A stretch of DNA of 61,815 bases, the filler included. It is 6 parts of 6 records of this genome, joined end to end, with 100 filler letters (N's around TTAATTAATTAA, not from the genome) between each part and the next. Parts side by side here need not be neighbours in the genome. Positions count along the whole stretch, not along the records: positions 54,354 to 61,815 come from SRR20825006_2155; 5 more parts are not named here. The stretch is one strand, 5' to 3'. The position numbers and the translations under genes are program-made. Numbering within the stretch: position 1 is the first letter of the stretch; each line of letters begins with the position of its first letter. Below are positions 8,836 through 59,541 of this stretch, piece by piece. Below the pieces are notes generated by a model. It worked only from the letters and a program-made list of their open reading frames with translations, was not told the DNA's origin and did not search any database.

Positions 8836-8935
8836 NNNNNNNNNNNNNNNNNNNNNNNNNNNNNNNNNNNNNNNNNNNNTTAATTAATTAANNNNNNNNN
8901 NNNNNNNNNNNNNNNNNNNNNNNNNNNNNNNNNNN
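8836..8935. other. Artificial contig spacer 1
   Basis: 44 N + TTAATTAATTAA (stops in all frames) + 44 N. Confidence 0.99.
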
Positions 8936-8937
8936 AG

Positions 8938-9468
8938 GACCCCTACGGCTCGCTCAACCCGCGCCGCACCATTGGCGACCAGCTGGTCGAGGGGCCGGTG
9001 AACTTTGACGAAAACCGCGCCAAAGCCATGGAACGTGCCCGCGAGCTGATGAAGATCGTGCGGCTCGATCCCGAGGTGCTGAACCGCTATCCCAACCAGT
9101 TCTCGGGCGGTCAACGCCAGCGGATCTGCATCGCACGCGCCCTGATGGTCGAGCCGAAAATCCTGATTGCGGACGAGGCGGTTTCGGCCTTGGATGTCTC
9201 CGTGCAAAAGGAGGTGCTCAAATTGCTGAATGAAATCCGCGACCGGATGGGGCTGACGGTCCTGTTCATCACCCACGACCTGCGCGTCGCCGCACAGGTT
9301 TGTGACACGCTGATCGTCATGCAACAGGGCGATGTGGTGGAACGCGGCACCGTCGAACAGGTCTTTGGCGCGCCGTCGCACCCCTACACCCGGATGCTGC
9401 TGGACGCGCAGCCCGGCAAGCATTGGGTCGTGCCCGATGTCTCCACTCTGCCCCCGGCCGTCGCATGA
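8938..9468 (+). CDS. Dipeptide/oligopeptide ABC transporter ATPase, C-terminal fragment
   Basis: DPYGSLNPR, FSGGQRQR signature, IADEAVSALD Walker B, ITHDL, HPYTRMLL. Confidence 0.93.
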   Translation, partial: DPYGSLNPRRTIGDQLVEGPVNFDENRAKAMERARELMKIVRLDPEVLNRYPNQFSGGQRQRICIARALMVEPKILIADEAVSALDVSVQKEVLKLLNEIRDRMGLTVLFITHDLRVAAQVCDTLIVMQQGDVVERGTVEQVFGAPSHPYTRMLLDAQPGKHWVVPDVSTLPPAVA

Positions 9469-11054
9469 GCGGGTCGTTTTCGCGCAGCCAGCAGACCCGC
9501 AAGCCGGGTGTAACGGCCACCTCGGGCGGTGTCGTCGCAGCCCAGCATGTGGTTGCCGCCGAGGTTGGGGCCGAAGTCCTGGCCGCAGGCGGTGACGCGG
9601 TCGATGCCGCCGTCGCCGTAAGCTTTGCCATTGGCGTGGTCGAACCGTGGATGTCCGGCCCCATGGGCGGCGGTGCCATGATGCTGTGGCGTGAAGGCGA
9701 AAGCCGCGCCCATGCGCTGAACTATGGCATGCGCTCGTCCGCCACGCTGGACGTGTCGCATTATCCGCTGTCGGGTGCCGGCAAGGCATCGGACCTCTTC
9801 CCGTGGGAAGCCGTGGTCGAGGACCGCAACGTCACAGGTGCCACATCGGTGGCCGTGCCCGGCACGATGGCAGGCATTTCCGCCGCACACGGCCGCTTTG
9901 GCCGGATGCCGTGGGACACGCTGCTGGCCCCCGCCGTCGATCTGGCCAAACGCGGCTTGCACGTGGATTGGTACGCGGCCCTTGTCATCGCCTCCAGCGC
10001 CCGCGATCTGGCGTTGGACCCGGACGCGGCGGCGCTGTATCTGGACGATGGCCAATGGCCCAAAGGCTCCGGCTGGACCGCGCTGGCCGATCAGCGGCTG
10101 GACCAAAGCAAGATGGCCGAAACGCTGGAACAGCTGGCCCGCGAGGGCGAAGCGGCCTTCTATCGTGGCGACATCGCTGCGGCGCTTGTGCGCGATGTGA
10201 CCGACAAGGGCGGCTTCCTGTCCATGGACGACATGCGCGATTACAGCGTCACATGGTCCGACCCGCTGGCGATCCCCTTCCGCGATGGCACCATCCACGC
10301 CATGCCCGGCCTGACCGCAGGCCCGACGCTGGCCGACGCGCTTGCCCGCTGGCAGGATGGCTATGACGTCGCCGATGCCGACAGCCCCGCCGCCTATGTC
10401 GCCCGCGCCAACGGGCTGCGCGCGGCCTATGCCGACCGGCTGAGCAATATGGGCGACCACGAAAGCGCCAAGGCCCCCGGTTGCACCACGCATTTTTCCA
10501 TCGTGGACAGCGCCGGCAACATGGTGTCGATGACACAAACCCTGCTGTCGATCTTCGGCTCCAAGGTGGTGTCGCCCTCGACCGGGCTGAGCCTGAACAA
10601 CGGCATCATGTGGTTCGACCCCGAGCCGGGCAAGCCCAACTCTCTGGGTCCCGACAAAGCCTGTCTGATGAACGTCTGCCCCGTCGTCGGTGAAACCCCG
10701 ACCCGCCGCTTTGCGCTGGGGGCCTCGGGCGGACGCAAGATCATGCCCGCCGTGGCGCAGATCAGCGGTCACCTGATGGAACAGGGCATGTCGATGCAGG
10801 ACGCCATCGAAGCGCCGCGCATTGACGCCTCGGGCGGTGCGCAGGTTGTGGCAGACGAACGGCTTGCCGGTCCCGTGGCCGACGCGCTGGCGGACAATTT
10901 CCCGCTGGCGCTGGCGCAGCGACTGCCGTTCCCCTTTGCCTTTGCCTGCCCCGCAGGGGTGATGCGCGAGGGCACCACCAATTCCGGCACCACGGAAACC
11001 ATGTCCCCCTGGGGCGATGGCGTGGCTGAACCCGAAACCAAAAAGGCCCCTTGA
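9465..11054 (+). CDS. Gamma-glutamyltransferase family Ntn-hydrolase
   Basis: GGDAVDAAVA...VVEPWMSG, SVAVPG, nucleophile CTTHFSIVD, NNGIMWFDP, GASGG; ATGA overlap with the ATPase gene. Confidence 0.92.
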   Translation: MSGSFSRSQQTRKPGVTATSGGVVAAQHVVAAEVGAEVLAAGGDAVDAAVAVSFAIGVVEPWMSGPMGGGAMMLWREGESRAHALNYGMRSSATLDVSHYPLSGAGKASDLFPWEAVVEDRNVTGATSVAVPGTMAGISAAHGRFGRMPWDTLLAPAVDLAKRGLHVDWYAALVIASSARDLALDPDAAALYLDDGQWPKGSGWTALADQRLDQSKMAETLEQLAREGEAAFYRGDIAAALVRDVTDKGGFLSMDDMRDYSVTWSDPLAIPFRDGTIHAMPGLTAGPTLADALARWQDGYDVADADSPAAYVARANGLRAAYADRLSNMGDHESAKAPGCTTHFSIVDSAGNMVSMTQTLLSIFGSKVVSPSTGLSLNNGIMWFDPEPGKPNSLGPDKACLMNVCPVVGETPTRRFALGASGGRKIMPAVAQISGHLMEQGMSMQDAIEAPRIDASGGAQVVADERLAGPVADALADNFPLALAQRLPFPFAFACPAGVMREGTTNSGTTETMSPWGDGVAEPETKKAP

Positions 11055-12443
11055 ATGACCCTGCAAGACTCTGCCCGCGCCAATATCGAAACCTATTTCG
11101 ACGATGGTGATTTCCAACGCGAGCTGGCCACGCTGGTGTCCCGTCCCACAGAAAGCCAGGACCCGCGCGGCAAGCCGCACCTGCACGCCTATCTGCACGA
11201 CGACATGGCCCCGATGCTGGAAGCCATGGGGTTCACCTGTCAGTTCCACGACAACCCCGTGCCCGACGGCCCGCCCATCCTGACCGCCGAGCGGATCGAG
11301 GATGCAAACCTGCCCACGGTCCTGACCTATGGCCACGGCGACGTGGTCCGCGCGCAAGAGGGCCAGTGGCGCGAGGGGTTGACCCCGTTCGAGCTGATCG
11401 AGGAAGGCGACCGCCTGTACGGGCGCGGGTCGGCTGACAACAAGGTCCAGCACCTGATCAACCTGCGTGCAATGCAGGCGGTGCTGAAGGCACAGGGCCA
11501 CTTGGGCTTTAACGCCAAGGTCATCATCGAAATGGGCGAAGAGGCCGGATCGCCCGGCCTGAAGGAATTCTGCACCACCAACGCCGACCTGCTCAGCGCG
11601 GACGTGTTCATCGCGTCCGACGGCCCGCGCTTGCGCCCTGCGGCGCCCACGATCTTTACCGGATCGCGCGGCGGCGTCAGCTTTGATCTCGAGGTCAACC
11701 TGCGCGAGGGGGCCAACCACTCGGGCAACTTCGGCGGTCTGCTGGCGGACCCCGCGATGATCCTGTCGCACGCCCTGGCCAGCATCACCGACGCGCGCGG
11801 CCAGATCCGCGTGCCGGAATGGCGCCCGACCAGCCTGACCCCCCGCATCCGCGAGGTGCTGGCCGCCCTGCCCGCCCACGACACCGGCATCGACCTGGAC
11901 GCCGATTGGGGCGAGGCGGACCTGAGCCCCGCCGAGCGCGTGTTCGGCTGGAACAGCTTTGCCATTCTGGCAATGACCGCAGGCGTGCCCGCCGCACCCG
12001 TCAACGCCATCGCCGGATCGGCCCGCGCCACTTGCCAGCTGCGGCTCGTGGTCGGCACCGAGGTTGACGACATCCTGCCCGCCCTGCGCCGCCATCTGGA
12101 CCGCGAAGGGTTCGACAAGGTCAAGATCGTCGCGCACAGCCGCAACAGCTTTCCGGCCACACGGCTGGACCCCGACCACCCGATGGTCCGTTTCGCCACC
12201 GCGTCGATTGAAAAAAGCGTGGGCACAGCACCGGACATCCTGCCGAACCTTGGCGGCTCGTTGCCCAACGATTGCTTTGCCGAGGTACTGGGCCTGCCGA
12301 CGATCTGGGTGCCGCATTCCTATGCGGGTTGCTCGCAGCACGCGCCCAACGAACATATCCTGAAATCCCTGTCGCGTCAGGCGCTGGTGGCAATGACCGG
12401 ACTGTTCGCCGATCTGGCCGAACAAGGCCTGCCAAAGGATTGA
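11055..12443 (+). CDS. M20 family metallopeptidase (dipeptidase/deacylase-like)
   Basis: YGHGDVV, YGRGSADNK, EMGEE and QHAPNEH metal-ligand motifs. Confidence 0.92.
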   Translation: MTLQDSARANIETYFDDGDFQRELATLVSRPTESQDPRGKPHLHAYLHDDMAPMLEAMGFTCQFHDNPVPDGPPILTAERIEDANLPTVLTYGHGDVVRAQEGQWREGLTPFELIEEGDRLYGRGSADNKVQHLINLRAMQAVLKAQGHLGFNAKVIIEMGEEAGSPGLKEFCTTNADLLSADVFIASDGPRLRPAAPTIFTGSRGGVSFDLEVNLREGANHSGNFGGLLADPAMILSHALASITDARGQIRVPEWRPTSLTPRIREVLAALPAHDTGIDLDADWGEADLSPAERVFGWNSFAILAMTAGVPAAPVNAIAGSARATCQLRLVVGTEVDDILPALRRHLDREGFDKVKIVAHSRNSFPATRLDPDHPMVRFATASIEKSVGTAPDILPNLGGSLPNDCFAEVLGLPTIWVPHSYAGCSQHAPNEHILKSLSRQALVAMTGLFADLAEQGLPKD

Positions 12444-16906: not shown

Positions 16907-17006
16907 NNNNNNNNNNNNNNNNNNNNNNNNNNNNNNNNNNNNNNNNNNNNTTAATTAATTAANNNNNNNNNNNNNNNNNNNNNNNNNNNNNNNNNNNNNN
17001 NNNNNN
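16907..17006. other. Artificial contig spacer 2
   Basis: N run + TTAATTAATTAA + N run. Confidence 0.99.
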
Positions 17007-30692: not shown

Positions 30693-31949
30693 ATGACGCC
30701 TCAGGAAATCGCGAATATCCTGGACGAACACGAAAAATGGCTGAGCCGCGCCCATAGCGGATCTCGGGCAAATCTGGCACGCGCCAACCTTTCCGGTTTC
30801 ACGCTCGAAAAGGTAAACCTCAAATCCGCCAAAATGTCCGGTGCGAACCTGCAGAAGACGATCCTGGTCGGCAGCAACCTCAGCCATACGGATCTGTTCT
30901 GTGCGGTGCTTGATGGCGCCGATCTGAGGGATGCCGACCTGCAGAATGCCGATCTGCGCGGCGCCTCCATTCGTAACGTCGCCTTCAAGGGCGCCAATCT
31001 TGTCGGCGCCGATTTCCGCGGCGGCACGCTCATGTTCGGCACCGACGATGACGAGGGGCAGAGGGACGGGCCGACATCGAACCAGCAAGGCGCCGACCTG
31101 AGCTATTCGGCCATGCCGAATGCGAGCCTTGCGGGCGCGCATCTGGCCGGAGCGAACCTTTCCGGGGTGAACCTGCGCAATGCGGACCTGAAGGGAGCTG
31201 ATCTTTCCAACTGTGTGCTGGTTGAAGCAGACCTTTCCGGCGCGGACTTGCAGGATGCCAATCTGTCCGGCGCCCGGCTCGACAATACGATTCTCAAGCA
31301 TGCCAATCTGTCCGGAGCCAACCTGGACGGCTGCGACCTTTCCGGAGCGGATGTCACCGGCGCCAACATGGTTCGACACGAAGATTCCCTGCCTTTCGAG
31401 GTCCGCGAAGTCCTCAACATGCACTACGTCTGGATCCGGGAAGACGGACGCCTTGGCGACCGCGCGATCCTGAAGAATGCCGACCTGAGCTTTATTGATC
31501 TTGCCGCCGTGAATCTGTCCGGCGCGGATCTGCACGGGGCCAATATGAGCGGGGCCAACCTCTCGAACGTCCTGCTTGTGATGTCGGATCTGTCCGATAC
31601 GAACCTGAAGGGGGCGAACCTGAGTGGCGCGACGCTGGAGGGGATCAACCTCGCAAATGCCGACATGACGGATGCGGATCTTTCGCATGCGGGGATAGGG
31701 CCGGTCGACCTGAAGGATCAGAAAGGCCAGCTTACCGGACGGAAATGGCCCGCAAACCTTTCCGGCGCCAAACTGGTGAATGCAAACCTCAAGGATGCTG
31801 ACCTGCAAAATGCCAACCTGGCCGGAGCAGATCTTACAGGTGCGGATCTTTCCGGCGCGGATCTTACGCGCGCGAATCTTACGGATGCGGTCTTTAAGAC
31901 CGAGCAGATCTCAACCGCAAAAACCGGCGTGAACGCCGACAATAAATAA
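30693..31949 (+). CDS. Pentapeptide repeat protein 1 (two HxxW-capped modules)
   Basis: Extensive A(D/N)Lxx repeats; caps HEKWL...RANL and HYVWI...RAIL. Confidence 0.93.
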   Translation: MTPQEIANILDEHEKWLSRAHSGSRANLARANLSGFTLEKVNLKSAKMSGANLQKTILVGSNLSHTDLFCAVLDGADLRDADLQNADLRGASIRNVAFKGANLVGADFRGGTLMFGTDDDEGQRDGPTSNQQGADLSYSAMPNASLAGAHLAGANLSGVNLRNADLKGADLSNCVLVEADLSGADLQDANLSGARLDNTILKHANLSGANLDGCDLSGADVTGANMVRHEDSLPFEVREVLNMHYVWIREDGRLGDRAILKNADLSFIDLAAVNLSGADLHGANMSGANLSNVLLVMSDLSDTNLKGANLSGATLEGINLANADMTDADLSHAGIGPVDLKDQKGQLTGRKWPANLSGAKLVNANLKDADLQNANLAGADLTGADLSGADLTRANLTDAVFKTEQISTAKTGVNADNK

Positions 31950-32461: not shown

Positions 32462-32564
32462 TAAGTGTTGAGTTGAAACGAGCCTCCAAAGGTTCACTGC
32501 CCAGGGGGGCACTGCATTGTCTGCTTATCGGCAGCCCCGCGCTGATGGAAAGAAACCAGAGTCG

Positions 32565-33815
32565 ATGACGCCGGAAGATATTCTTCAAGCCATTGAGAGC
32601 CATCAGCGTTGGCTGAAACGCAAGCCGGGCGGCGTGCGTGCGGACCTGTCTGGACTTGACGTCGCGGGCTTTCAGCTGTCACGCGTGAACCTTCAGTCCG
32701 CACGTCTGTCAGGCGTCAATTTCTCGGGCACCTTCCTGTCCGCCGCCGATCTCAGTTATGCGGATCTGTTTTGCGCCAATCTGGATAATTCGGACCTGTC
32801 CAACGCCGTCCTGATGCGGGCAGACCTGCGCGGCGCAACCATCAGGGGGTCCAACCTCGGTGGCGCCAACCTGAAGGAAGCCGACATGCGCGGCGGCGCC
32901 ATCATCAACGACCTGGCGGATGAGCGCCCGACCTTTATCCGGGCAGACGTATCCTCCTCGACCATGGACGAGGCGGATATCAATAACGCCAATCTGTCCG
33001 GAACCAATCTGTCCAATTCCAGCATGATCGGCACCAACCTTGAGAACACCCTGCTTTGCGGTGCCAATCTCAGCGGGGTGAATCTCGAGAATGCAAACCT
33101 GACCGGAGCGGATCTGTCCGGCGCCAATCTGGCGAACGCAAAAATTATCGGGGCCAACCTCAGGGGCGCAAACCTGCGCGGCGCCCTGATATCCGAAACC
33201 AGCTTTGCCAAATCCGATCTCAGCAGCGCAATTCTCGAGCGGGTCAACCTGTCGACGGCCAATCTCACTGGCGCCCAGCTGGTGACCGAGAACGGGGACC
33301 GCAGCCGTTCCCTCCGGGATATCGTCAATGATCATGAACTGTGGATACGCGAGCAGGGTCGCGGCGGTACCCGGGCGCAGCTTGCCGGGGCCAATCTCAA
33401 GGATGTCGATCTGAGCGATATCAACCTGTCGGGCGCGGACCTGCGCGAAGTGGATCTGTCCGGCGCCAAGATGCGCCGCACCCAGCTGGTGATGACAGAC
33501 CTTACCGGCGCCAAGCTTCCCCGGGCCGATCTCAGGGATTCCGATCTGTCCGGCACCAAGCTGATCTCCGCCGACCTGACGGATGCGCAGATGAATGGCG
33601 CACTGTTTTATCCGGTCGAGCTGAAAGACGCCAATGGCAACCCGACCGGACGGTTCTGGCCGTCCGATCTGGAAGGTGCCTTGCTCCGCAATGCGGATCT
33701 TACCGGAGCCCGTTTCAAAGGCGCCAACCTCACCGGCACGGATCTGAAAGGTGCCCGGACCGCCGGCGCCCAGTTTACGGACACGGACCTCGACCAGGCA
33801 GTGACGGACGCCTGA
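32565..33815 (+). CDS. Pentapeptide repeat protein 2, paralog of 30693-31949
   Basis: Same architecture; MTPEDI aligns with MTPQEI of the paralog. An alternative TTG start exists at 32517. Confidence 0.93.
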   Translation: MTPEDILQAIESHQRWLKRKPGGVRADLSGLDVAGFQLSRVNLQSARLSGVNFSGTFLSAADLSYADLFCANLDNSDLSNAVLMRADLRGATIRGSNLGGANLKEADMRGGAIINDLADERPTFIRADVSSSTMDEADINNANLSGTNLSNSSMIGTNLENTLLCGANLSGVNLENANLTGADLSGANLANAKIIGANLRGANLRGALISETSFAKSDLSSAILERVNLSTANLTGAQLVTENGDRSRSLRDIVNDHELWIREQGRGGTRAQLAGANLKDVDLSDINLSGADLREVDLSGAKMRRTQLVMTDLTGAKLPRADLRDSDLSGTKLISADLTDAQMNGALFYPVELKDANGNPTGRFWPSDLEGALLRNADLTGARFKGANLTGTDLKGARTAGAQFTDTDLDQAVTDA

Positions 33816-34487: not shown

Positions 34488-34587
34488 NNNNNNNNNNNNN
34501 NNNNNNNNNNNNNNNNNNNNNNNNNNNNNNNTTAATTAATTAANNNNNNNNNNNNNNNNNNNNNNNNNNNNNNNNNNNNNNNNNNNN
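34488..34587. other. Artificial contig spacer 3
   Basis: N run + TTAATTAATTAA + N run. Confidence 0.99.
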
Positions 34588-42602: not shown

Positions 42603-42702
42603 NNNNNNNNNNNNNNNNNNNNNNNNNNNNNNNNNNNNNNNNNNNNTTAATTAATTAANNNNNNNNNNNNNNNNNNNNNNNNNNNNNNNNNNNNNNNNNN
42701 NN
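42603..42702. other. Artificial contig spacer 4
   Basis: N run + TTAATTAATTAA + N run. Confidence 0.99.
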
Positions 42703-51753: not shown

Positions 51754-53067
51754 TCAGCTGTTGTTGCGCTCGCGTCTCAGCCTGGCCCACCAGGCGAGGC
51801 GTTTATTGATATCGCGTTCAAATCCGCGATCAGGTGGATTGTAGTATTTCTGACGCCCCATTTCGGTGGGAAAATAGTCCTGTCCTGAAAACGCATCCGG
51901 CTGATCATGGTCATAGCGATACCCATCGCCATAACCTTCTTCGCGCATCAGCTTGGTCGGAGCATTGAGAATATGTTTCGGTGGCAGCAGAGAGCCGTGT
52001 TCCCGGGCCGCACGCATCGCCGCCTTGTAGGCGGTATAAACGCCATTCGATTTTGGTGCGGTGGCCAGATAAACACAAGCCTCGGCCAGTGCAAGTTCGC
52101 CCTCCGGCGAGCCAAGATATTCATAGGCATCCTTGGCGGCATTCGCAATCACGAGCGCTTGCGGATCAGCAAGACCAATATCTTCCGACGCCATGCGAAC
52201 CAGCCTACGGCCCAGATAAAGAGGGTCTTCACCGGCATCGAACATACGGGCAAGATAATAAAGCGCCGCATCCGGGTCCGAGCCGCGAACAGACTTATGC
52301 AAGGCAGAAATAAGGTTGTAATGCCCGTCCTGGCCCTTGTCATAGATCGGTGCACGCCGCTGAACGATATTCAGGAGACTTTGTGGATCAAGGCGTTCGT
52401 CGACACGCGCTGAACGCCAGATTTCTTCTGCAAGTGTCAGGATTGCACGGCCATCGCCGTCAGCCATCATCACAAGCGTTTCACGTGCCGCCTCATCAAG
52501 TGGCAACACCCTGCCTTCTGCTGTTTCTGCGCGGCCGATTAACTCAGTCAGGCTTCCAGCATCATGTGACCTGAACGTTAAAACCCGTGCCCGCGATAAA
52601 AGCGCTGCATTCAGTTCAAATGAGGGATTTTCCGTGGTGGCTCCCACAAGAATAATCGTTCCATCCTCCATCACAGGCAGAAAACTGTCCTGCTGTGCGC
52701 GATTGAAACGATGGATCTCATCAACAAACAACAGCGTCTGCCGCCCGTTTATCCGACGCGCGCGGGCGGCCTCAAAAACCTTTTTAAGATCAGCAACACC
52801 AGAGAAGATTGCCGAAATTTGTTCAAAGGCAAGATCCGCTTCTCCGGATAAAAGCCGGGCAACCGTGGTTTTGCCAGTGCCCGGCGGGCCCCAGAAGATC
52901 ATGGAACCGAGCGAGCCCGACTCAATCATACGGGTCAGCGCACCATCCGGCCCGGTCAGGTGCGCCTGACCGGTGACGTCGCCCAATTGCTGCGGGCGCA
53001 ACCGATCAGCCAGCGGCCGCCGCTGATGAACATTATCCGGAATATGGGGGGCAAAAAGATCACTCAT
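51754..53067 (-). CDS. rarA: Replication-associated recombination protein A (MgsA)
   Basis: PLADRLRP, GPPGTGKT, DEIHRFN, GATTENP, ISALHKSVRGSD. Confidence 0.97.
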   Translation of the reverse strand: MSDLFAPHIPDNVHQRRPLADRLRPQQLGDVTGQAHLTGPDGALTRMIESGSLGSMIFWGPPGTGKTTVARLLSGEADLAFEQISAIFSGVADLKKVFEAARARRINGRQTLLFVDEIHRFNRAQQDSFLPVMEDGTIILVGATTENPSFELNAALLSRARVLTFRSHDAGSLTELIGRAETAEGRVLPLDEAARETLVMMADGDGRAILTLAEEIWRSARVDERLDPQSLLNIVQRRAPIYDKGQDGHYNLISALHKSVRGSDPDAALYYLARMFDAGEDPLYLGRRLVRMASEDIGLADPQALVIANAAKDAYEYLGSPEGELALAEACVYLATAPKSNGVYTAYKAAMRAAREHGSLLPPKHILNAPTKLMREEGYGDGYRYDHDQPDAFSGQDYFPTEMGRQKYYNPPDRGFERDINKRLAWWARLRRERNNS

Positions 53068-54253
53068 CGGAACAACTGGGTTATCATCCTTCCACCGCGA
53101 TTGATACTGAGCTTCCAGTATCCGGGATTGTGATCCGCAACTTTTTCCATGGTTCTGGTCGTGTCAATATGATCATCGTTGACCGCAACGATGATATCAC
53201 CCCGAGAGAACCCGACACGGGCTGCCGGCGAACCCTTTTCTATACCGGAGACCACAACACCTTCGGCATCACCTGGAAGACGCATCTCTTCAATGACTCT
53301 GGGTGAAATGTTTTCCACCGTCAAACCGGCAAACGGACTATTCCCGGAGATTTCACGGGTGTCGCGAGGCGGATCCTCCGGCGCAAGCTGCAAAGGCAGC
53401 GAGATATCGGAAAGCTCGCCATCGCGATCAATCTTGAGATCGGCTTTCTGTCCAACGCCCAGTACAGTCAGGCGGTAAAGCAACGCATCGGGATGCTGTA
53501 CCGGAATGCCATTCACCGCGACAACAACCGACCCCGGTTTGAGGCCCGCCTTATCCGCCGGGCTATCCGGCACAACATCGGAGACGATTGCACCACGTGC
53601 GGCGTTAAGCCCGAGTGCCTCTGCCATATCCGAAGTGACCGGCCCGAAGGTGGCGCCAACATAGGGCCGCTGGAAGCGCTTCTGTCCGCTTTCCGCAGAC
53701 GCGAGAAACACTTTCACCATATTGGCAGGGATGGCAAAGCCAATGCCGTTCGAACCTCCGCCCTTGGAAAAGATCGCAGTGTTGATACCGATCAGTTCAC
53801 CATTCATATCCAGCAGTGCACCGCCGGAATTGCCGGGATTAATCGCCGCATCGGTCTGCAGGAAAAAGCCGAACTCGCCATCGGTGATCGAATTTCGTGC
53901 CGTGCCCGAAACAATTCCGCTGGTCACTGTCTGACCAACGCCGAAAGGGTTGCCAATCGCCAGCGCAATATCTCCGACCTCAACACCGTCGGAATTACCG
54001 ATCGGCACAGTCGGGAAGGTTTCATCCGACTGAATCTTCAGTACCGCCAGATCATATCGTTCATCCTTCAGCAGCACTTTGCACGGAAACTCCCGCCCGT
54101 CAGAAAGCGCCACCTTCACCTCATCAGCACCGGATATGACGTGGTTATTGGTAATGACGACACCGTCATCGGCCACGATAACGCCGGACCCAAGAGACAC
54201 CTGCTTCTGTGAACGCCCCTGTGGCGTCTGCCGCCCGAAGAACTGGCCGAAAA
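53064..54253 (-). CDS. HtrA/DegQ serine protease with two PDZ domains (5' truncated)
   Basis: GSGV, TNNHV, DLAVL, QTDAAINPGNSGG. Confidence 0.95.
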
Positions 54254-54353
54254 NNNNNNNNNNNNNNNNNNNNNNNNNNNNNNNNNNNNNNNNNNNNTTA
54301 ATTAATTAANNNNNNNNNNNNNNNNNNNNNNNNNNNNNNNNNNNNNNNNNNNN
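54254..54353. other. Artificial contig spacer 5
   Basis: N run + TTAATTAATTAA + N run. Confidence 0.99.
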
Positions 54354-54495: not shown

Positions 54496-55266
54496 CTACC
54501 CCTTCTCCGGCGCGAAGTAATCAGGAAAGGCGGCGCGCTTCTCGGCGATGCGGTCCACCGTGCGCTGCAGGTGGCGGCGCAGAGCGTCCATGGCGCGGGC
54601 GGCGTCTCCGGCCTCGATGCCATCGACCACCTGTGTGTGCCCTTCGACCACCTGCTGGTTGTTGTGCATCCGGCCCGCGTCATCCGTGTCGGACAGGTGC
54701 AGGCGGCGCAGCCGTTCCAGGTGGCCTGCGTGGCTGCGCAGGATGCGCTGGGTCTGTACGTGGCGGGCGGCGACGAACAGGGTCTGGTGGAATGCTTCGT
54801 CCAGTTCCTGAAAGGTCGGCACATCGCCTGGGTTCTGCGCGATCCCGGACTGAAGCGCCACGATGCTCCGCAGCCGCGCCAGATCCTCGGGGGCAATCTG
54901 CCCTGCCAGCTCGCGCACCACTTCGGTTTCCAGCGCGATGCGCATGAACTGGGCCTCGCGGATGGCAGTCACGTCGATGGGCGTGACCAGCGTGCGCGAC
55001 TGCGGGAAAATATGCACCAGCCCCTCTTTGGCCAGTTGCTGCAAGGCATCGCGCAGGGGGGTCAGGCTGACGCCATAGGTCTCGGCCAGCTCGGCCCGCA
55101 ACAAGGGCGTGCCCGGTGGCAGGTCCAGCTTGACGATCTGCTCGCGCAGGCTGTCATAGACGCCGCGCCCGGTCGGCCCACCCTCGAACAGCGCCATGCC
55201 GGCGCTGCGCATGGCCTTGGGAAGCAGGCTCATCGCCGGGCCTTGTGATTTGCTGGATTCATTCAT
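54496..55266 (-). CDS. GntR family regulator (FCD domain)
   Basis: LREQIVKLDLPPG...LAETYGVSLTPLRDAL HTH; DEAFH, H and H FCD metal ligands. Confidence 0.92.
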   Translation of the reverse strand: MNESSKSQGPAMSLLPKAMRSAGMALFEGGPTGRGVYDSLREQIVKLDLPPGTPLLRAELAETYGVSLTPLRDALQQLAKEGLVHIFPQSRTLVTPIDVTAIREAQFMRIALETEVVRELAGQIAPEDLARLRSIVALQSGIAQNPGDVPTFQELDEAFHQTLFVAARHVQTQRILRSHAGHLERLRRLHLSDTDDAGRMHNNQQVVEGHTQVVDGIEAGDAARAMDALRRHLQRTVDRIAEKRAAFPDYFAPEKG

Positions 55267-55293
55267 TGCGAGGGCACTTTGTTCCTGTTAATC

Positions 55294-55305
55294 CTAATAT
55301 ATCAG
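55294..55305. promoter_or_regulatory. Probable GntR operator
   Basis: Near-palindrome CTAATATATCAG in the short divergent intergenic region. Confidence 0.55.
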
Positions 55306-55357
55306 TTTGCTTCCCAAACCCGAAGTCTTTTTTCAGCCAACCGAAAGCACACAGTCG

Positions 55358-56905
55358 ATGGACAGCCCCACCTTAGACCGAAACGCCACCGCAAGGGTAC
55401 TCTTGCTGTCGGGTGGCGACAACGTGGTGGTTGCCACCGGACCGATTGCCCAAGGGACACCGCTGCCCGACCACGGGGTGACCGCCAACCACGACACGCC
55501 GCAGGGCCACAAGATCGCCATCCGCCCGATCCAGAGCGGCGCGCCGATCCTGAAATTCGAGACGGTCATCGGCTATGCCGCCCATGACATCGCACCGGGC
55601 GACTGGCTGCACAGCCACAACATCAAGTTCGACGCGGTGGACAAGGATTACGCCTTTGCCCGCGATTATGTCCCGACCGACATCCTGCCCGAGGACCAGC
55701 GCGCCACCTTCATGGGCATCCGCCGCGCCAACGGTCAGGTCGGCACGCGCAACTATATCGGCCTGTTCGTCACCGTGAACTGTTCCGCCACCGTGGCGCG
55801 CAAGATCGGCAATTATTTCGACGAAGAGCGCATGGAAGACTGGGCCAATGTCGACGGGGTGATCCCGTTTATCCACGAATCCGGCTGCGGCATGGAAATG
55901 ACGGGCGAGCCGATGGACCTGCTGCGGCGCACGCTGGCGGGCTATATCCGGCACCCCAACATGGCCGGCGCCGTAGTGCTGTCGCTGGGCTGCGAGCGGA
56001 ACAATCTGGCGCAGTTCTTCGAGGAACAAAGCCTGGCCGAAGGCAAGATGCTGAAAACCATCACCATGCAGCATGTGGGCGGCACCGCGCGCGCCATCAC
56101 CGAAGGCAAGGCCGCCGTGCGCGACATGCTGGACGCCGCCAATCAGGTGCAGCGCACCCCGTGCAGCGCCGAACACATCACCATCGGGATGCAATGCGGC
56201 GGCTCGGACGGGCTGTCGGGGCTGTCGGCCAACCCCGGTCTGGGGGCGGCGGCGGATATTCTGGTGCGCAACGGTGGCACCGCGATCCTGTCCGAAACGC
56301 CCGAGATCTTTGGCGTCGAACACCTGCTGACCCGCCGCGCGCAGTCCGAGGCCGTGGGCCGCAAGCTGGTTGACCGCATGGACTGGTGGCTGGATTATAC
56401 CAAGGGCCGCGACACCCAGATCAACGGCGTCGTCAGCCCCGGCAATCAGGCAGGCGGGCTGGCCAACGTGTTGGAAAAATCGCTGGGCGGGGCCAAGAAA
56501 AGCGGCAGCACCGGATTGATGGAGGTCTATCGTTACGCCGAGCCGGTGACCCAGAAGGGGCTGGTGTTCATGGACACCCCCGGCTTTGATCCGGTGTCTG
56601 CCACGGGGCAGATCGCGGGCGGGGCCAACCTGATCTGTTTCACCACCGGGCGCGGTTCTTGCTTTGGGTCGTATCCGTCGCCCACGATCAAGCTGGCGTC
56701 GAACACGCCGATGTTCACCCAGATGCAGGACGATATGGACATCAACTGTGGCACGGTGATTGATGGGGACAAGACCATTGCCGAGCTGGGGCAGGAGATT
56801 TTCGACCATATCCTGGCCGTGGCGTCAGGGCAGGCCAGCAAATCCGAAGCACTGGGCGTCGGAGAAGAAGAATTCGCACCCTGGCCGATTGGCGTGACGG
56901 GCTGA
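55358..56905 (+). CDS. UxaA/GarD family dehydratase (SAF + GD_AH_C fused)
   Basis: DNVVVA, GHKIA, GTRNY, HESGCG, SLGCE, QCGGSDG, LSETPE, FTTGRGS. Confidence 0.93.
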   Translation: MDSPTLDRNATARVLLLSGGDNVVVATGPIAQGTPLPDHGVTANHDTPQGHKIAIRPIQSGAPILKFETVIGYAAHDIAPGDWLHSHNIKFDAVDKDYAFARDYVPTDILPEDQRATFMGIRRANGQVGTRNYIGLFVTVNCSATVARKIGNYFDEERMEDWANVDGVIPFIHESGCGMEMTGEPMDLLRRTLAGYIRHPNMAGAVVLSLGCERNNLAQFFEEQSLAEGKMLKTITMQHVGGTARAITEGKAAVRDMLDAANQVQRTPCSAEHITIGMQCGGSDGLSGLSANPGLGAAADILVRNGGTAILSETPEIFGVEHLLTRRAQSEAVGRKLVDRMDWWLDYTKGRDTQINGVVSPGNQAGGLANVLEKSLGGAKKSGSTGLMEVYRYAEPVTQKGLVFMDTPGFDPVSATGQIAGGANLICFTTGRGSCFGSYPSPTIKLASNTPMFTQMQDDMDINCGTVIDGDKTIAELGQEIFDHILAVASGQASKSEALGVGEEEFAPWPIGVTG

Positions 56906-56921
56906 CAAGGAAGACCACGAT

Positions 56922-58238
56922 ATGACACCGAATTATGTGAAACTGGTGCAGGACACGGTGCTGCCGCGCATCGCGCTGTGCCGCCAGACCTTTGCCGCCA
57001 CCCGCGCCGGCGACCCCGCCGCCGCCGTGCGCGACGCGATGGCGCGCGCCGCCTGCACGGACAAGGTCAAGCCGGGCATGTCCATTGCCATCACCGCTGG
57101 CAGCCGGGGCATCGCGGATTTCCCCGAACTGCTGACCGCCATCGTGGCCGAGGTCCGCGCACGCGGGGCCGATCCCTTTGTCGTGCCCTCCATGGGCAGC
57201 CACGGCGGCGCCACCGCCGAAGGACAGACCGCCCTGCTGGCCAAGCTGGGCGTGACAGAGGATGTGATCGGCTGCCCGATCCGGTCGTCCATGGACACCG
57301 ACGAAATCGGCGTTCTGGACAACGGCATGTCGGTGCGCATGGACCGGTTTGCCAATGCCGCCGACGGCATCATCCTGTTCAACCGGATCAAACCGCACAC
57401 CTCTTTCCGCGCGCCCAACGAAAGCGGTCTGGCAAAGATGCTGTCGATCGGGCTGGGCAAGCAATCGGGTGCCGAAAACTGCCACGCGCGCGGCATCGAC
57501 AACGTCGGTATCTTTGTCGCCAAGATGGCGCGGATGAAGCTGGAACGCTGCAAGGTGATGTTCGGCATCGGCACCATCGAAAACGCCTATGACGAACTGG
57601 CGCGGGTCGAGGTTCTGGACAGCGCCGGCTTGCTCGAGGCCGAGGCACCGCTGCTGCAAGAGGCGATGGCCAACATGCCGCGCCTGCCGGTTGGTCCGCT
57701 GGACCAGCCCACCGCTTCGGGCACGCTGGACGTGCTGGTGGTGGACGAGATCGGCAAGGAGTTTTCCGGCACCGGCATGGACCCCAACATCACCCACCGC
57801 TTTTCCAGCCCCAAGATGCAGGTGCACCTGCACATCGAACGGCTGGTGGCACTGGGGCTGTCGCCGCGCAGCAATGGCAACGGCAACGGGGCCGCGCGGG
57901 CCGATGTGATCACCGCGCAGATCGAAGAGAATTTCGACCGCGAGGCCGTCTATGCCAACTGCCTGACCTCGCAAGTGCTGATGCAGGCCAAGCTGCCGAT
58001 GGTCATGCCCTGCGCGCGCTCGGCCATTCAAACAGTGGTGAAAACCTGCGGCGCCGAGGACATCACCAAGCCGCGTCTGCTGCGCATTCCGAACACGCTG
58101 AAGCTGGAATACCTTTATGCGTCCGAGGCGATGCTGCCCGAGCTGCGCGACCGTCCGGGGTTCGAGATCATCGGCGATCTGGAAGAGATGCAGTTCGAGG
58201 ATGGCCGGCTGGTCAACCCCTGGCCGGACGCACACTGA
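56922..58238 (+). CDS. LarA-like (lactate racemase domain) nickel-pincer-dependent isomerase
   Basis: MGSHGGAT; RIKPHTSF...ESGLAKM...GKQSGAENCH parallels the LarA His/Lys/His arrangement; coupled to larC. Confidence 0.8.
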   Translation: MTPNYVKLVQDTVLPRIALCRQTFAATRAGDPAAAVRDAMARAACTDKVKPGMSIAITAGSRGIADFPELLTAIVAEVRARGADPFVVPSMGSHGGATAEGQTALLAKLGVTEDVIGCPIRSSMDTDEIGVLDNGMSVRMDRFANAADGIILFNRIKPHTSFRAPNESGLAKMLSIGLGKQSGAENCHARGIDNVGIFVAKMARMKLERCKVMFGIGTIENAYDELARVEVLDSAGLLEAEAPLLQEAMANMPRLPVGPLDQPTASGTLDVLVVDEIGKEFSGTGMDPNITHRFSSPKMQVHLHIERLVALGLSPRSNGNGNGAARADVITAQIEENFDREAVYANCLTSQVLMQAKLPMVMPCARSAIQTVVKTCGAEDITKPRLLRIPNTLKLEYLYASEAMLPELRDRPGFEIIGDLEEMQFEDGRLVNPWPDAH

Positions 58239-59416
58239 TGGGGCTGCATCTGCATCTGGACCCCGTCGGCGGGGCAGCGGGCGATATGTTCATTGCCGCC
58301 ATGCTGCACGCACGTTCCGACCTGACCGACCGCGTTCTGGCCGATGTCGCCGCCGTTTTGCCCGCCGAGGTGGGCAGGCCCGAGCTGACCGAACATGTGG
58401 CATCCGGCATCATGTCGCGCCAGTTCAAGCTGGTGCTGGCCAAGGGTGGCATAAATGCGCGGCACGGGGCGGAAACCACCTACAAGGCGATGCGCGCGCT
58501 GCTGGAAACCGCGCCGCTGTCCGACGGCACGGCGGACGCCGCCTGTGCCATCCTGCACCGCATCGCCGAGGCCGAGGCGCAGGTCCACAACATCCCCATC
58601 GACCGCGTGCATTTCCACGAAATCGCCGATTGGGACGCGCTGATGGACGTGACCGCCGCGGGCAGCATTTGCGCCGCACTGGACGGGGCGACCTACAGCC
58701 TGGCACCGCTGCCGCTGGGTGGCGGTCTGGTCGATACGGCGCATGGCAAACTGCCGGTGCCGGCGCCTGCGACGGCGCTGATCCTGCAAGGCTATGACTG
58801 GCACGACGACGGCATCGCGGGCGAACGGGTGACGCCGACGGGGGCCGCGATCCTGGCCCATGTCACCGGCGGCAGCCACGGCACCCGCCCGCCCGGTCGG
58901 CTGTCGGGCGTGGGTTCGGGCGCGGGCACGCGCGTGATGAAAGGTCTGCCGAATATCCTGCGCGTCACGATGTTCGACACCGCCGAAAGCGGCATGATGC
59001 ACGACCCGCTTGTGCAACTGTCCTGCGACATCGACGACATGACCGGCGAGGAACTGGGCGCTGCCACCGACACCCTGCGCGCAACGGCGGGTGTGGTCGA
59101 TGTGCTGCTGCTGACCGCCATGGGCAAGAAATCCCGCCCCGTGGTGCGCATAGACCTGCTGGTGCAACCAGACGCCGCCGAGGCCGTGGCCGCACGGATG
59201 TTCGACGTGACCTCGACCCTGGGCCTGCGCCGCAGCGTGGTTGACCGGCTGATCCTACCCCGCAGCATCGAGACAACCCCCGACGGCACCCGCCGCAAAC
59301 GCACCCGCCGCCCCGCAGGGCATGACACGCTGAAAGTGGAAAGCGATGATCTGGACGCCAGCCCGACACTGGCCGACCGCCGGACAGCGGCGCGGAAGGG
59401 CGAAACCGAGGGATAA
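58238..59416 (+). CDS. larC: Nickel insertase for the NPN cofactor
   Basis: GGAAGDM, EAEAQVH...VHFHEI..WD, HGKLPVPAPAT, TPTGAAIL, IDDMTGE, KKSRP, TSTLGLR. Confidence 0.93.
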   Translation: MGLHLHLDPVGGAAGDMFIAAMLHARSDLTDRVLADVAAVLPAEVGRPELTEHVASGIMSRQFKLVLAKGGINARHGAETTYKAMRALLETAPLSDGTADAACAILHRIAEAEAQVHNIPIDRVHFHEIADWDALMDVTAAGSICAALDGATYSLAPLPLGGGLVDTAHGKLPVPAPATALILQGYDWHDDGIAGERVTPTGAAILAHVTGGSHGTRPPGRLSGVGSGAGTRVMKGLPNILRVTMFDTAESGMMHDPLVQLSCDIDDMTGEELGAATDTLRATAGVVDVLLLTAMGKKSRPVVRIDLLVQPDAAEAVAARMFDVTSTLGLRRSVVDRLILPRSIETTPDGTRRKRTRRPAGHDTLKVESDDLDASPTLADRRTAARKGETEG

Positions 59417-59509
59417 AGCGCCCTTGATTTATACCCTATAATACGGATTATGTAATCATCAGCCGCACAAACCAAAGCCCCCGGGTTCACACACACACGC
59501 AAAGCAAAA

Positions 59510-59541
59510 CGCCCCCGATCAAGCTGATCGGGGGCGCATTT
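59510..59541. terminator. Bidirectional terminator
   Basis: Perfect 12-bp stem CGCCCCCGATCA-AGC-TGATCGGGGGCG with A/T tracts on both sides. Confidence 0.85.

Follow-up and report, generated by a model that had tools for sequence, protein, structure and literature searches.

The stretch of DNA analysed here (the window) is 61,815 nucleotides (nt) long and carries, on the last of its six contigs, a gntR regulator gene on the minus strand and, divergent from it on the plus strand, three genes for a dehydratase of the UxaA/GarD superfamily, a homolog of the nickel-pincer enzyme LarA (LarAH) and the nickel insertase LarC. The host of this operon is a marine Sulfitobacter-like bacterium of the roseobacter group. 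An earlier reading of the letters alone (the original prediction) had described the same gene content and order, including a 1-nt overlap between larAH and larC, all of which we recovered, and had proposed that the isomerase converts the C2 epimer of a hydroxy acid into the substrate of the dehydratase.

The dehydratase gene (55358-56905, plus strand) encodes a predicted sugar-acid dehydratase of 515 amino acids, in which the Pfam domains SAF (E-value 1.6e-10), GD_AH_second (5.2e-41) and GD_AH_C (6.2e-96) are fused in one chain. Its open reading frame (ORF) opens at 55307, and the start conserved in an alignment of three Sulfitobacter loci (the window and two others) is the ATG at 55358. Residues 29-511 align with the structure of Escherichia coli GarD (6u7l; 4e-91), and the motifs VNCSAT, SGCGME, LGCERN and MQCGGSD align with the cysteine-containing motifs of that chain. 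The four conserved cysteines that have been proposed as iron ligands of UxaA/GarD dehydratases (PMC6336799) are thus present, as judged by alignment to 6u7l and not to the numbered residues of the D-arabinonate dehydratase C785_RS13685; three-domain architecture and Cys motifs are common to GarD, UxaA, C785_RS13685 and the window protein. Identity to E. coli UxaA and GarD is, however, 34-35% (tblastn), and the score against the GarD equivalog model TIGR03248 is 359.8 bits, below the cut-off of 730.85. We placed the protein in a tree of the UxaA-family neighbours of LarAH loci together with E. coli UxaA (b3091) and GarD. Ten loci grouped with GarD and three, including locus L054, with UxaA (100/100 support in each case), a fourth set held seven rows of short split forms, and the window dehydratase fell outside both E. 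coli clades, in a clade of 11 rows (98/97 support) that has no characterised member. By these sequence comparisons it is an ortholog of neither GarD nor UxaA. The substrates that the original prediction had given for UxaA, GarD and SuyAB enzymes (altronate, galactarate or (R)-sulfolactate) were moreover an incomplete set, since D-idonate, D-arabinonate and L-galactonate are also substrates in this family besides altronate (PMC6336799).

The dehydratase stop codon is followed, after 16 nt that include AAGGAAG, by larAH (56922-58238, plus strand), which encodes a putative nickel-pincer nucleotide (NPN)-dependent 2-hydroxy-acid epimerase. LarAH scored 471.8 bits against the NCBIfam model NF052515 ('nickel pincer cofactor-dependent isomerase, group 22'; cut-off 400) over model positions 1-390 of 392. 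Searching solved structures with the single sequence gave no meaningful match, and the family profile found 2yjg as its sole LarA match (E-value 0.17), with GsHGg aligned to GFHRG and ikPH to IEPH. Because sequence alone gives no significant match to a structure, the family assignment is based on the NCBIfam model, on the fold and on a published alignment. For the fold we used an AlphaFold2 model built from an alignment of LarAH homologs (mean predicted local distance difference test score 90.1, predicted template modelling score 0.89), for which the Foldseek matches in the Protein Data Bank listed at E ≤ 1e-8 were all LarA-family chains (2yjg, 6d6z, 7s91, 9eia, 9eid, 9q3j, 9q3k, 8ezf, 8ezh, 5huq and 6c1w; E-values 1.6e-11 to 9.4e-9, template modelling scores about 0.42-0.58), the next listed match having an E-value of 1.5e-3.

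The published alignment is that of Desguin et al. 2020 (Sci Rep, PMC7583248), whose Group 22 corresponds to NF052515. The original prediction had assigned LarAH to an SHGGAT subgroup, which is not an uncatalogued one: the supplement of that study describes Group 22 as 20 proteins of 'Unknown function', and its members Rxyl_2987, Bcoa_1745 and Cagg_0419 share with the window LarAH the motifs PGM..A.TAGSRGI, PF.VPAMGSHGGAT..GQ, RIK.HT.F and ESGL.KM..(I/V)G(L/M)GK. In the window protein the motifs AGSRG, GSHGG, KPH, GLAKM and ENCH place A59, R62, H94, H159, T160, S161, K172 and H188 at LarA positions D72, R75, H108, H174, F175, F176, K184 and H200, in agreement with the reported Group 22 signature A R H H T D/S K H (PMC7583248), an equivalence that derives from this signature and from motif spacing and not from a solved structure or superposition. 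On this basis H94 (in GSHGG) and H159 (in KPH) are the equivalents of the catalytic histidines H108 and H174, K172 (in GLAKM) that of the NPN-tethering lysine K184, H188 (in ENCH) that of the nickel ligand H200, and R62 that of R75. These five residues are invariant in 24/24 aligned homologs, while positions 59, 160 and 161 vary; the His/His/Lys/His catalytic and cofactor set that the original prediction had read from the motifs is therefore present in the window protein and in all of these homologs. From its sequence and predicted model LarAH looks like a true nickel-pincer enzyme. Homologs are numerous (at least 7995 at E ≤ 1e-10).

The third gene, larC (58238-59416, plus strand), encodes a fused LarC1+LarC2 protein, the CTP-dependent nickel insertase for NPN (Pfam Ni_insertion, 7.8e-86), with NCBIfam scores of 162.6 bits for LarC1 (cut-off 90) and 92.3 bits for LarC2 (cut-off 50). 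The larAH stop and larC start codons overlap by one nt (TGATG), an arrangement from which we judge larC to be translationally coupled to larAH. The remaining lar genes, larB and larE, do not lie on the 7.46-kb operon contig; in the Sulfitobacter dubius copy of the locus both are found 10-12 kb from larAH. To place the locus among its relatives we scanned one genome per species, which returned 597 LarAH relatives, and fetched the best 80 of these with 8 kb on either side; the counts for group-22 loci at large come from those 80. At least one lar gene lies within ~8 kb in 29/80, and lar genes are present in the fetched stretch of all 11 Rhodobacteraceae group-22 loci. Pseudooceanicola lipolyticus (G002) has two group-22 LarAH clusters, L088 and L089, whose LarAH proteins are 82% and 50% identical to that of the window and which have their own copies of larB, larC and larE each.

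The pairing of the dehydratase with LarAH is conserved, as the original prediction had supposed, but within limits. We defined an orthologous clade by LarAH identity of at least 82%, which comprises 19 loci (the window, L001, L002, L088 and 15 metagenome loci), and found uxaA directly upstream of larAH in 17 of them. Among group-22 loci more widely, a UxaA-family gene lies within ~8 kb of larAH in 23/80, spread over Pseudomonadota, Planctomycetota, Chloroflexota and Bacillota, and is adjacent on the same strand in eight (two Sulfitobacter, a Planctomycetota member, two Ktedonobacteraceae, a Lachnospiraceae member, Acidaminococcus and one further). On a rough estimate, if a 4-Mb genome has one or two such genes, fewer than 1% of random 16-kb stretches would include one, and since the observed frequencies are far above this expectation we regard the linkage as real. 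In a midpoint-rooted FastTree phylogeny of 95 LarAH sequences, uxaA linkage was seen in 12/15 rows of the subclade that holds the window and in 11/20 rows of a second, mostly Bacillota subclade, and in no row of a 27-row Bacillales subclade. The linkage is thus a property of subclades, not of Group 22 as a whole. Group-22 LarAH itself is sparse in the host's family, occurring in 9/401 Rhodobacteraceae genomes searched.

Longer copies of the locus showed that the operon is one arm of a larger island, and not the self-contained three-gene pathway originally envisaged. A 99%-identical metagenome scaffold (L098) reads aldehyde dehydrogenase (ALDH; minus strand), IlvD/Edd and DHDPS (plus), gntR (minus), uxaA-larAH-larC (plus), a PRC-barrel gene and rmlA. 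In S. dubius DSM 16472 the island starts at the operon end with LysR, larC-larAH-uxaA and gntR, continues with RraA-like, DHDPS, IlvD/Edd, HpcH-type aldolase, ALDH and D-2-hydroxyacid dehydrogenase genes, and ends with NIPSNAP, gntR, larB, larE, a further gntR and a TRAP-TAXI transporter. The HpcH-type aldolase matches HpaI and GarL best, below cut-off, and the DHDPS gene gives its best match to models of 5-dehydro-4-deoxyglucarate dehydratase (KdgD), again below cut-off (144 versus 278 bits). IlvD/Edd and DHDPS genes are both present in 14/14 orthologous loci with 2.3 kb or more of sequence on the far side of gntR; L107, with 1.5 kb of flank, shows neither, and L001, a 95%-identical contig of a Sulfitobacter metagenome-assembled genome, has IlvD/Edd but only a 124-amino-acid C-terminal remnant of DHDPS (724-1098; Pfam DHDPS, E-value 5.6e-5). 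The RraA-like gene of S. dubius had no match in the two loci of the window's own species (L098 and L099). ORFs in relatives were called by a longest-ORF rule, under which antisense artefacts occurred; a 131-amino-acid 'unknown ORF' beside S. dubius gntR proved to be the antisense of the RraA-like gene and was discarded.

Outside the window's clade, the closest relatives of the dehydratase (63-71% identity) occur in eight Rhodobacteraceae genomes (L114-L121), in modules of TRAP transporter, IlvD/Edd, sometimes an enolase-superfamily gene, DHDPS, RraA-like, UxaA and ALDH genes. IlvD/Edd is present in all eight, DHDPS and an adjacent RraA-like gene in seven each, ALDH in five and the enolase-superfamily gene in four; the two copies of the last that we scanned are both L-talarate/galactarate dehydratase equivalogs (609 and 600 bits, cut-off 500). 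This module would seem to be a roseobacter sugar-acid island with several dehydratases that has not been described before. A TalrD query found no enolase-type talarate/galactarate dehydratase in the LarAH-bearing loci of the window clade, and LarAH may stand in roseobacters for the enolase-type enzyme of these sister modules. As a simple substitution, however, this is half supported, for 4/8 of the LarAH-less modules lack both. The nearest LarAH relatives outside the clade also lie among hexarate genes. The closest (L003, 59% identity), on a Geopsychrobacteraceae chromosome, belongs to a cluster of LacI, GudD, GarR, tripartite tricarboxylate transporter (TTT) genes, LarAH, more TTT genes and GarD, in which GudD (871.8 bits, cut-off 828.7), GarR (523, cut-off 397) and GarD (896, cut-off 731) all pass their equivalog models. 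In a planctomycete (L006) TctCBA, gntR and LarAH are followed by a GarD equivalog (794 bits), and in L016 a GarD equivalog (750 bits) lies directly downstream of LarAH. In Halomonas, TTT transporters controlled by a GntR-family regulator are predicted importers of galactarate and glucarate (PMC5507952).

We read these data as an operon combining a dehydratase with an NPN-dependent 2-epimerase and its nickel insertase, under an FCD-type GntR regulator, with hexarates the favoured substrates and aldonates the second choice, a reading to which we give a probability of about 0.6. Building on the observed family membership, fold, residues and gene linkage, we infer reaction, direction and substrate as follows. 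LarAH would invert the configuration at the alpha-hydroxy carbon of a sugar acid not otherwise open to dehydration by the cell, candidates being epimers of galactarate or glucarate of the talarate/altrarate, mannarate or idarate type. The epimer would then be accepted by the UxaA/GarD-type dehydratase to give a 2-keto-3-deoxy acid (a 5-keto-4-deoxy acid in the case of an aldarate), which in the longer copies of the locus would pass through the DHDPS-family enzyme (similar to KdgD or to L-2-keto-3-deoxyarabonate (L-KDA) dehydratase) and ALDH to alpha-ketoglutarate semialdehyde and 2-oxoglutarate. Hexarates are preferred over aldonates because the nearest LarAH relatives from outside the clade are flanked by GudD, GarD and GarR genes, because the sister modules contain L-talarate/galactarate dehydratase, and because the DHDPS gene is KdgD-like. 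Of the three reactions offered as examples in the original prediction, the conversion of altrarate (talarate) to galactarate fits the comparative evidence best and that of sulfolactate worst. A more specific version is possible, although we hold it tentatively and at less than even odds: that the window's LarAH subclade is a nickel-pincer hexarate 2-epimerase, which would make hexarate stereoisomers for which no catabolic route is known (of the talarate/altrarate, mannarate, idarate or allarate type) accessible to dehydratases of the GarD/UxaA type and to the KdgD route. Were this so, it would be the first physiological pathway with an NPN enzyme acting on sugar diacids and a new substrate class for nickel-pincer chemistry, would explain the use of rare sugar-acid stereoisomers by marine roseobacters, and would provide a cofactor-dependent epimerase with which rare aldaric acids could be made.

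Several observations weigh against this reading. The substrate is deduced from gene neighbours alone. The dehydratase falls well short of the GarD equivalog cut-off (360 versus 731 bits) and its clade offers no characterised member as a guide, and the Group 22 residues at LarA Y294, Q295 and K298 differ from those of LarA in the Desguin dataset (PMC7583248), so that substrate handling is not readable from LarA. The locus counts given above, for the 19 orthologous loci as well as for the 80 best-scoring of 597 relatives, are not independent, several metagenome loci being near-copies of each other. The partners can also occur apart. L088 of P. lipolyticus (G002:C406, 13782-16299; LarAH 82% identical to the window's) and L100 (5829-8311; 88%) have larAH-larC, gntR, IlvD/Edd and DHDPS and no uxaA, with a gap of just 400-530 nt at the place that uxaA takes in the other 17 loci, from which it follows that the epimerase does not strictly need the dehydratase; conversely, 6/8 genomes with the closest UxaA relatives outside the window clade have no group-22 LarAH, so the dehydratase does not need the epimerase. 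The idea that the epimerase feeds the dehydratase remains the best reading. Neither partner strictly requires the other, and the most fitting role for the epimerase is that of an accessory broadening the range of stereoisomers open to the island. Finally, some neighbours point to aldonates. The adjoining IlvD/Edd protein passes the equivalog cut-off for L-arabinonate dehydratase (1085 versus 882 bits), and group-22 loci elsewhere lie in hexuronate or aldonate settings, beside UxuA, UxaC, SDR, FGGY kinase and GntP genes or, in L054, beside UxaB-like and PfkB kinase genes.

These last points are the substance of an alternative in which LarAH is an aldonate 2-epimerase (acting, for example, between D-allonate and D-altronate or between D-ribonate and D-arabinonate) that works with an aldonate dehydratase and leads into a Weimberg-type route via the DHDPS enzyme and ALDH. 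The known GntE enzymes are indeed aldonate 2-epimerases, and dehydratases of altronate, D-idonate, D-arabinonate and L-galactonate belong to the superfamily (PMC6336799). Also compatible with it is the gene context published for Group 22, in which the leading clusters of orthologous groups (COGs) are SDR, IlvD/Edd, LarE, TRAP, sugar kinases, IclR and glucuronate isomerase, COG2721 not being one of these (PMC7583248). We nevertheless regard an aldonate substrate as rather unlikely, given that the nearest outside LarAH members (L003 and L006) sit in GarD and/or GudD clusters with TTT transporters, that the paralogous modules contain L-talarate/galactarate dehydratase, and that neither a sugar-acid kinase nor a KDPG-type (2-keto-3-deoxy-6-phosphogluconate) aldolase was seen in the Sulfitobacter island. 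Alternatively, the epimerase could act after the dehydratase, inverting the remaining 2-hydroxy centre of a keto-deoxy-aldarate for the KdgD-like enzyme. Chemically this is reasonable, as a 5-keto-4-deoxy-aldarate keeps a 2-hydroxy-acid end, and both the gene order, uxaA before larAH, and the constant presence of the KdgD-like gene in loci with enough flank (14/14) are compatible with it; we consider it improbable, however, since no case of a LarA homolog with a keto-acid intermediate as substrate appears in the portions of the literature covered and L001 keeps the operon despite having only the 124-amino-acid DHDPS remnant.

Roseobacters are known for their use of organosulfonates, and a host from this group would suit a pathway in which (S)-sulfolactate is racemised by LarAH and then desulfonated by a SuyAB-like sulfo-lyase, the UxaA-family protein. 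SuyAB does belong to the UxaA/GarD superfamily, but it is heteromeric, and the four cysteines that are conserved in the dehydratases are not conserved in the sulfo-lyase (PMC6336799). The window protein lacks both hallmarks, and because it is a single fused chain, aligns with GarD over nearly its full length and keeps the Cys motifs, we find the sulfolactate pathway very hard to credit; its conserved neighbours are IlvD/Edd, DHDPS and ALDH, and the S. dubius island showed no annotated sulfite exporter or sulfite dehydrogenase gene. Lowest of all in probability we place the view that LarAH is not a nickel-pincer enzyme but a DUF362-like iron-sulfur or other LarA-resembling protein. This would account for the weak Pfam Lar_N match (25 bits), for the precomputed DUF362 hits in many LarAH homologs and for the fact that no solved LarA is matched significantly by sequence. 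It is made unlikely by family score, fold, residues and lar-gene links: larC is translationally coupled and lar genes recur in the neighbourhoods, the Foldseek matches listed at E ≤ 1e-8 are LarA-family chains only, and the four key residues are invariant in all 24 homologs.

The epimerase-dehydratase reading extends known systems more than it departs from them, and the original remark that no characterised pathway with this pairing is known needs qualifying. NPN-dependent sugar-acid epimerases encoded in catabolic operons are already known: GntE1 and GntE2 (LarAH19 and LarAH20), which are D-gluconate/D-mannonate 2-epimerases, likewise invert C2, are encoded within sugar-acid catabolic genes and funnel an epimer into an existing route. 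In contrast to these, the window LarAH belongs to another LarA group with no detectable pairwise similarity, has a UxaA/GarD-type partner and more likely acts on a diacid. Epimerisation of glucarate and mannarate by GntE1 was a speculation of the authors of PMC7583248, and C2 epimerisation of D-arabinarate epimers has been reported in PMC11770544. Also in print is a link between a LarA homolog and a dehydratase: Group 5, represented by Mar1 of Desulfitobacterium hafniense, is associated with COG2721 ('altronate dehydratase') in 19/19 cases and with TctA/TctC (Table S1 of PMC7583248). Mar1 has a Km for malate of 55 mM, which led the authors to question malate as its native substrate (PMC7583248). 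The window LarAH, by comparison, falls in another phylogenetic group, and the Group 5 pairing is tabulated there without being explained.

What the present analysis adds to the published Group 22 is the linkage of two subclades to UxaA/GarD dehydratases and aldarate clusters. In the literature covered, with the supplement of PMC7583248 as the one supplement included, we found no Group 22-GarD/UxaA linkage, placement in glucarate/galactarate clusters, roseobacter island or Group 22 assay. Nor did we find a Group 22 reaction there: PMC7583248 tested no member of the group, PMC11770544 does not mention it in the portions covered, and PMC12611868 concerns single-histidine subfamilies. Searches for nickel-pincer enzymes together with altronate/UxaA or with aldarates retrieved nothing relevant beyond PMC7583248, and a nickel-dependent aldo-keto-reductase family that came up (PMC13524815) appears from the portions covered to be unrelated.

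Two further systems invite comparison. Enolase-superfamily L-talarate/galactarate dehydratase (NF047820) and GudD are found in the paralogous modules and L003. These enzymes have an epimerase side activity that brings two C2-/C5-epimeric hexarates through one keto-deoxy intermediate. Their fold is unrelated and their chemistry is of the acid/base type, whereas LarAH would be a separate, hydride-shuttling nickel enzyme. The oxidative glucarate/galactarate route of KdgD and alpha-ketoglutarate semialdehyde dehydrogenase (KGSADH) likewise has dehydratase, DHDPS-family and ALDH genes together, but the DHDPS and ALDH of the island do not reach the equivalog cut-offs for KdgD and KGSADH, and IlvD/Edd and a nickel enzyme are added. 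Group 22 is one of the larger orphan nickel-pincer groups, and the comparative evidence narrows its substrates to sugar diacids first and aldonates second; the culturable S. dubius DSM 16472 carries the whole island with larB, larC and larE.

The regulator gene (54496-55266, minus strand) encodes an N-terminal GntR winged helix (Pfam GntR, 1.2e-16) followed by a C-terminal FCD domain (1.9e-21), which places it in the FadR/FCD subfamily, and orthologs with 74-97% identity occupy the same position in related loci. Between gntR and uxaA lies a divergent spacer of 91 nt (55267-55357) with a conserved block, TTAAtcCTAATATATCAgTT (~55287-55307), that encloses the imperfect palindrome CTAATATATCAG. 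This 12-nt, AT-rich element, the sole palindrome of the spacer, equals its own reverse complement at 10/12 positions by reading, a palindrome finder giving overlapping 9-nt arms with 89% complementarity, and the block TTAAnnCTAATATATCAnTT around it is identical in the three Sulfitobacter intergenic regions aligned. A scan of the spacer for the sigma-70 consensus gave no promoter match. The operator-like palindrome of the original prediction does therefore lie in a conserved block, but it is merely a 12-nt AT-rich element that could equally be a promoter element; from its sequence, TTAAnnCTAATATATCAnTT/CTAATATATCAG may be an operator, a promoter -10 region or both.

Beyond larC the contig continues with a PRC-barrel gene, convergent with larC, and rmlA. 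Between the two convergent genes lies a hairpin (59509-59537) whose GC-rich stem measures 13 bp and whose T-tail is on the minus strand, probably a shared terminator of larC and the PRC-barrel gene; an Rfam scan of the operon contig found no RNA family at E ≤ 0.1. The operon contig (54354-61815; 64.4% G+C) breaks 142 nt past the end of gntR. The six contigs of the window are joined end to end by five N44-TTAATTAATTAA-N44 spacers (8836-8935, 16907-17006, 34488-34587, 42603-42702 and 54254-54353), and gene neighbourhoods that span these are artificial because separate contigs were joined. For the same reason the DegP and RarA genes to the left of 54254-54353, on a contig of 55.2% G+C, are not neighbours of the operon. 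In order, the contigs have G+C contents of 55.8, 66.7, 60.6, 55.4, 55.2 and 64.4%, a spread (55.2-66.7%) that may indicate a mixed bin.

Three features of the other contigs are worth recording. The DegP/HtrA-type protease ORF at 53064-54200 (minus strand) aligns with its family model only from around position 60 onwards (from 112 in the case of the DegP model). The contig stops at 54253, a little upstream of the start given for this ORF, and the N-terminal part may lie off the contig. On the contig with 66.7% G+C, an ORF of 1013 amino acids (9384-12425, minus strand) without a Pfam match lies beside an opposite-strand row of PALP, amidase, RidA and DAO genes and may be either a real orphan gene or a high-G+C antisense artefact. 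Downstream of an AcrB-type efflux pair, two adjacent genes (30693-31949 and 32517-33815, plus strand) encode pentapeptide-repeat proteins of 418 and 432 amino acids.

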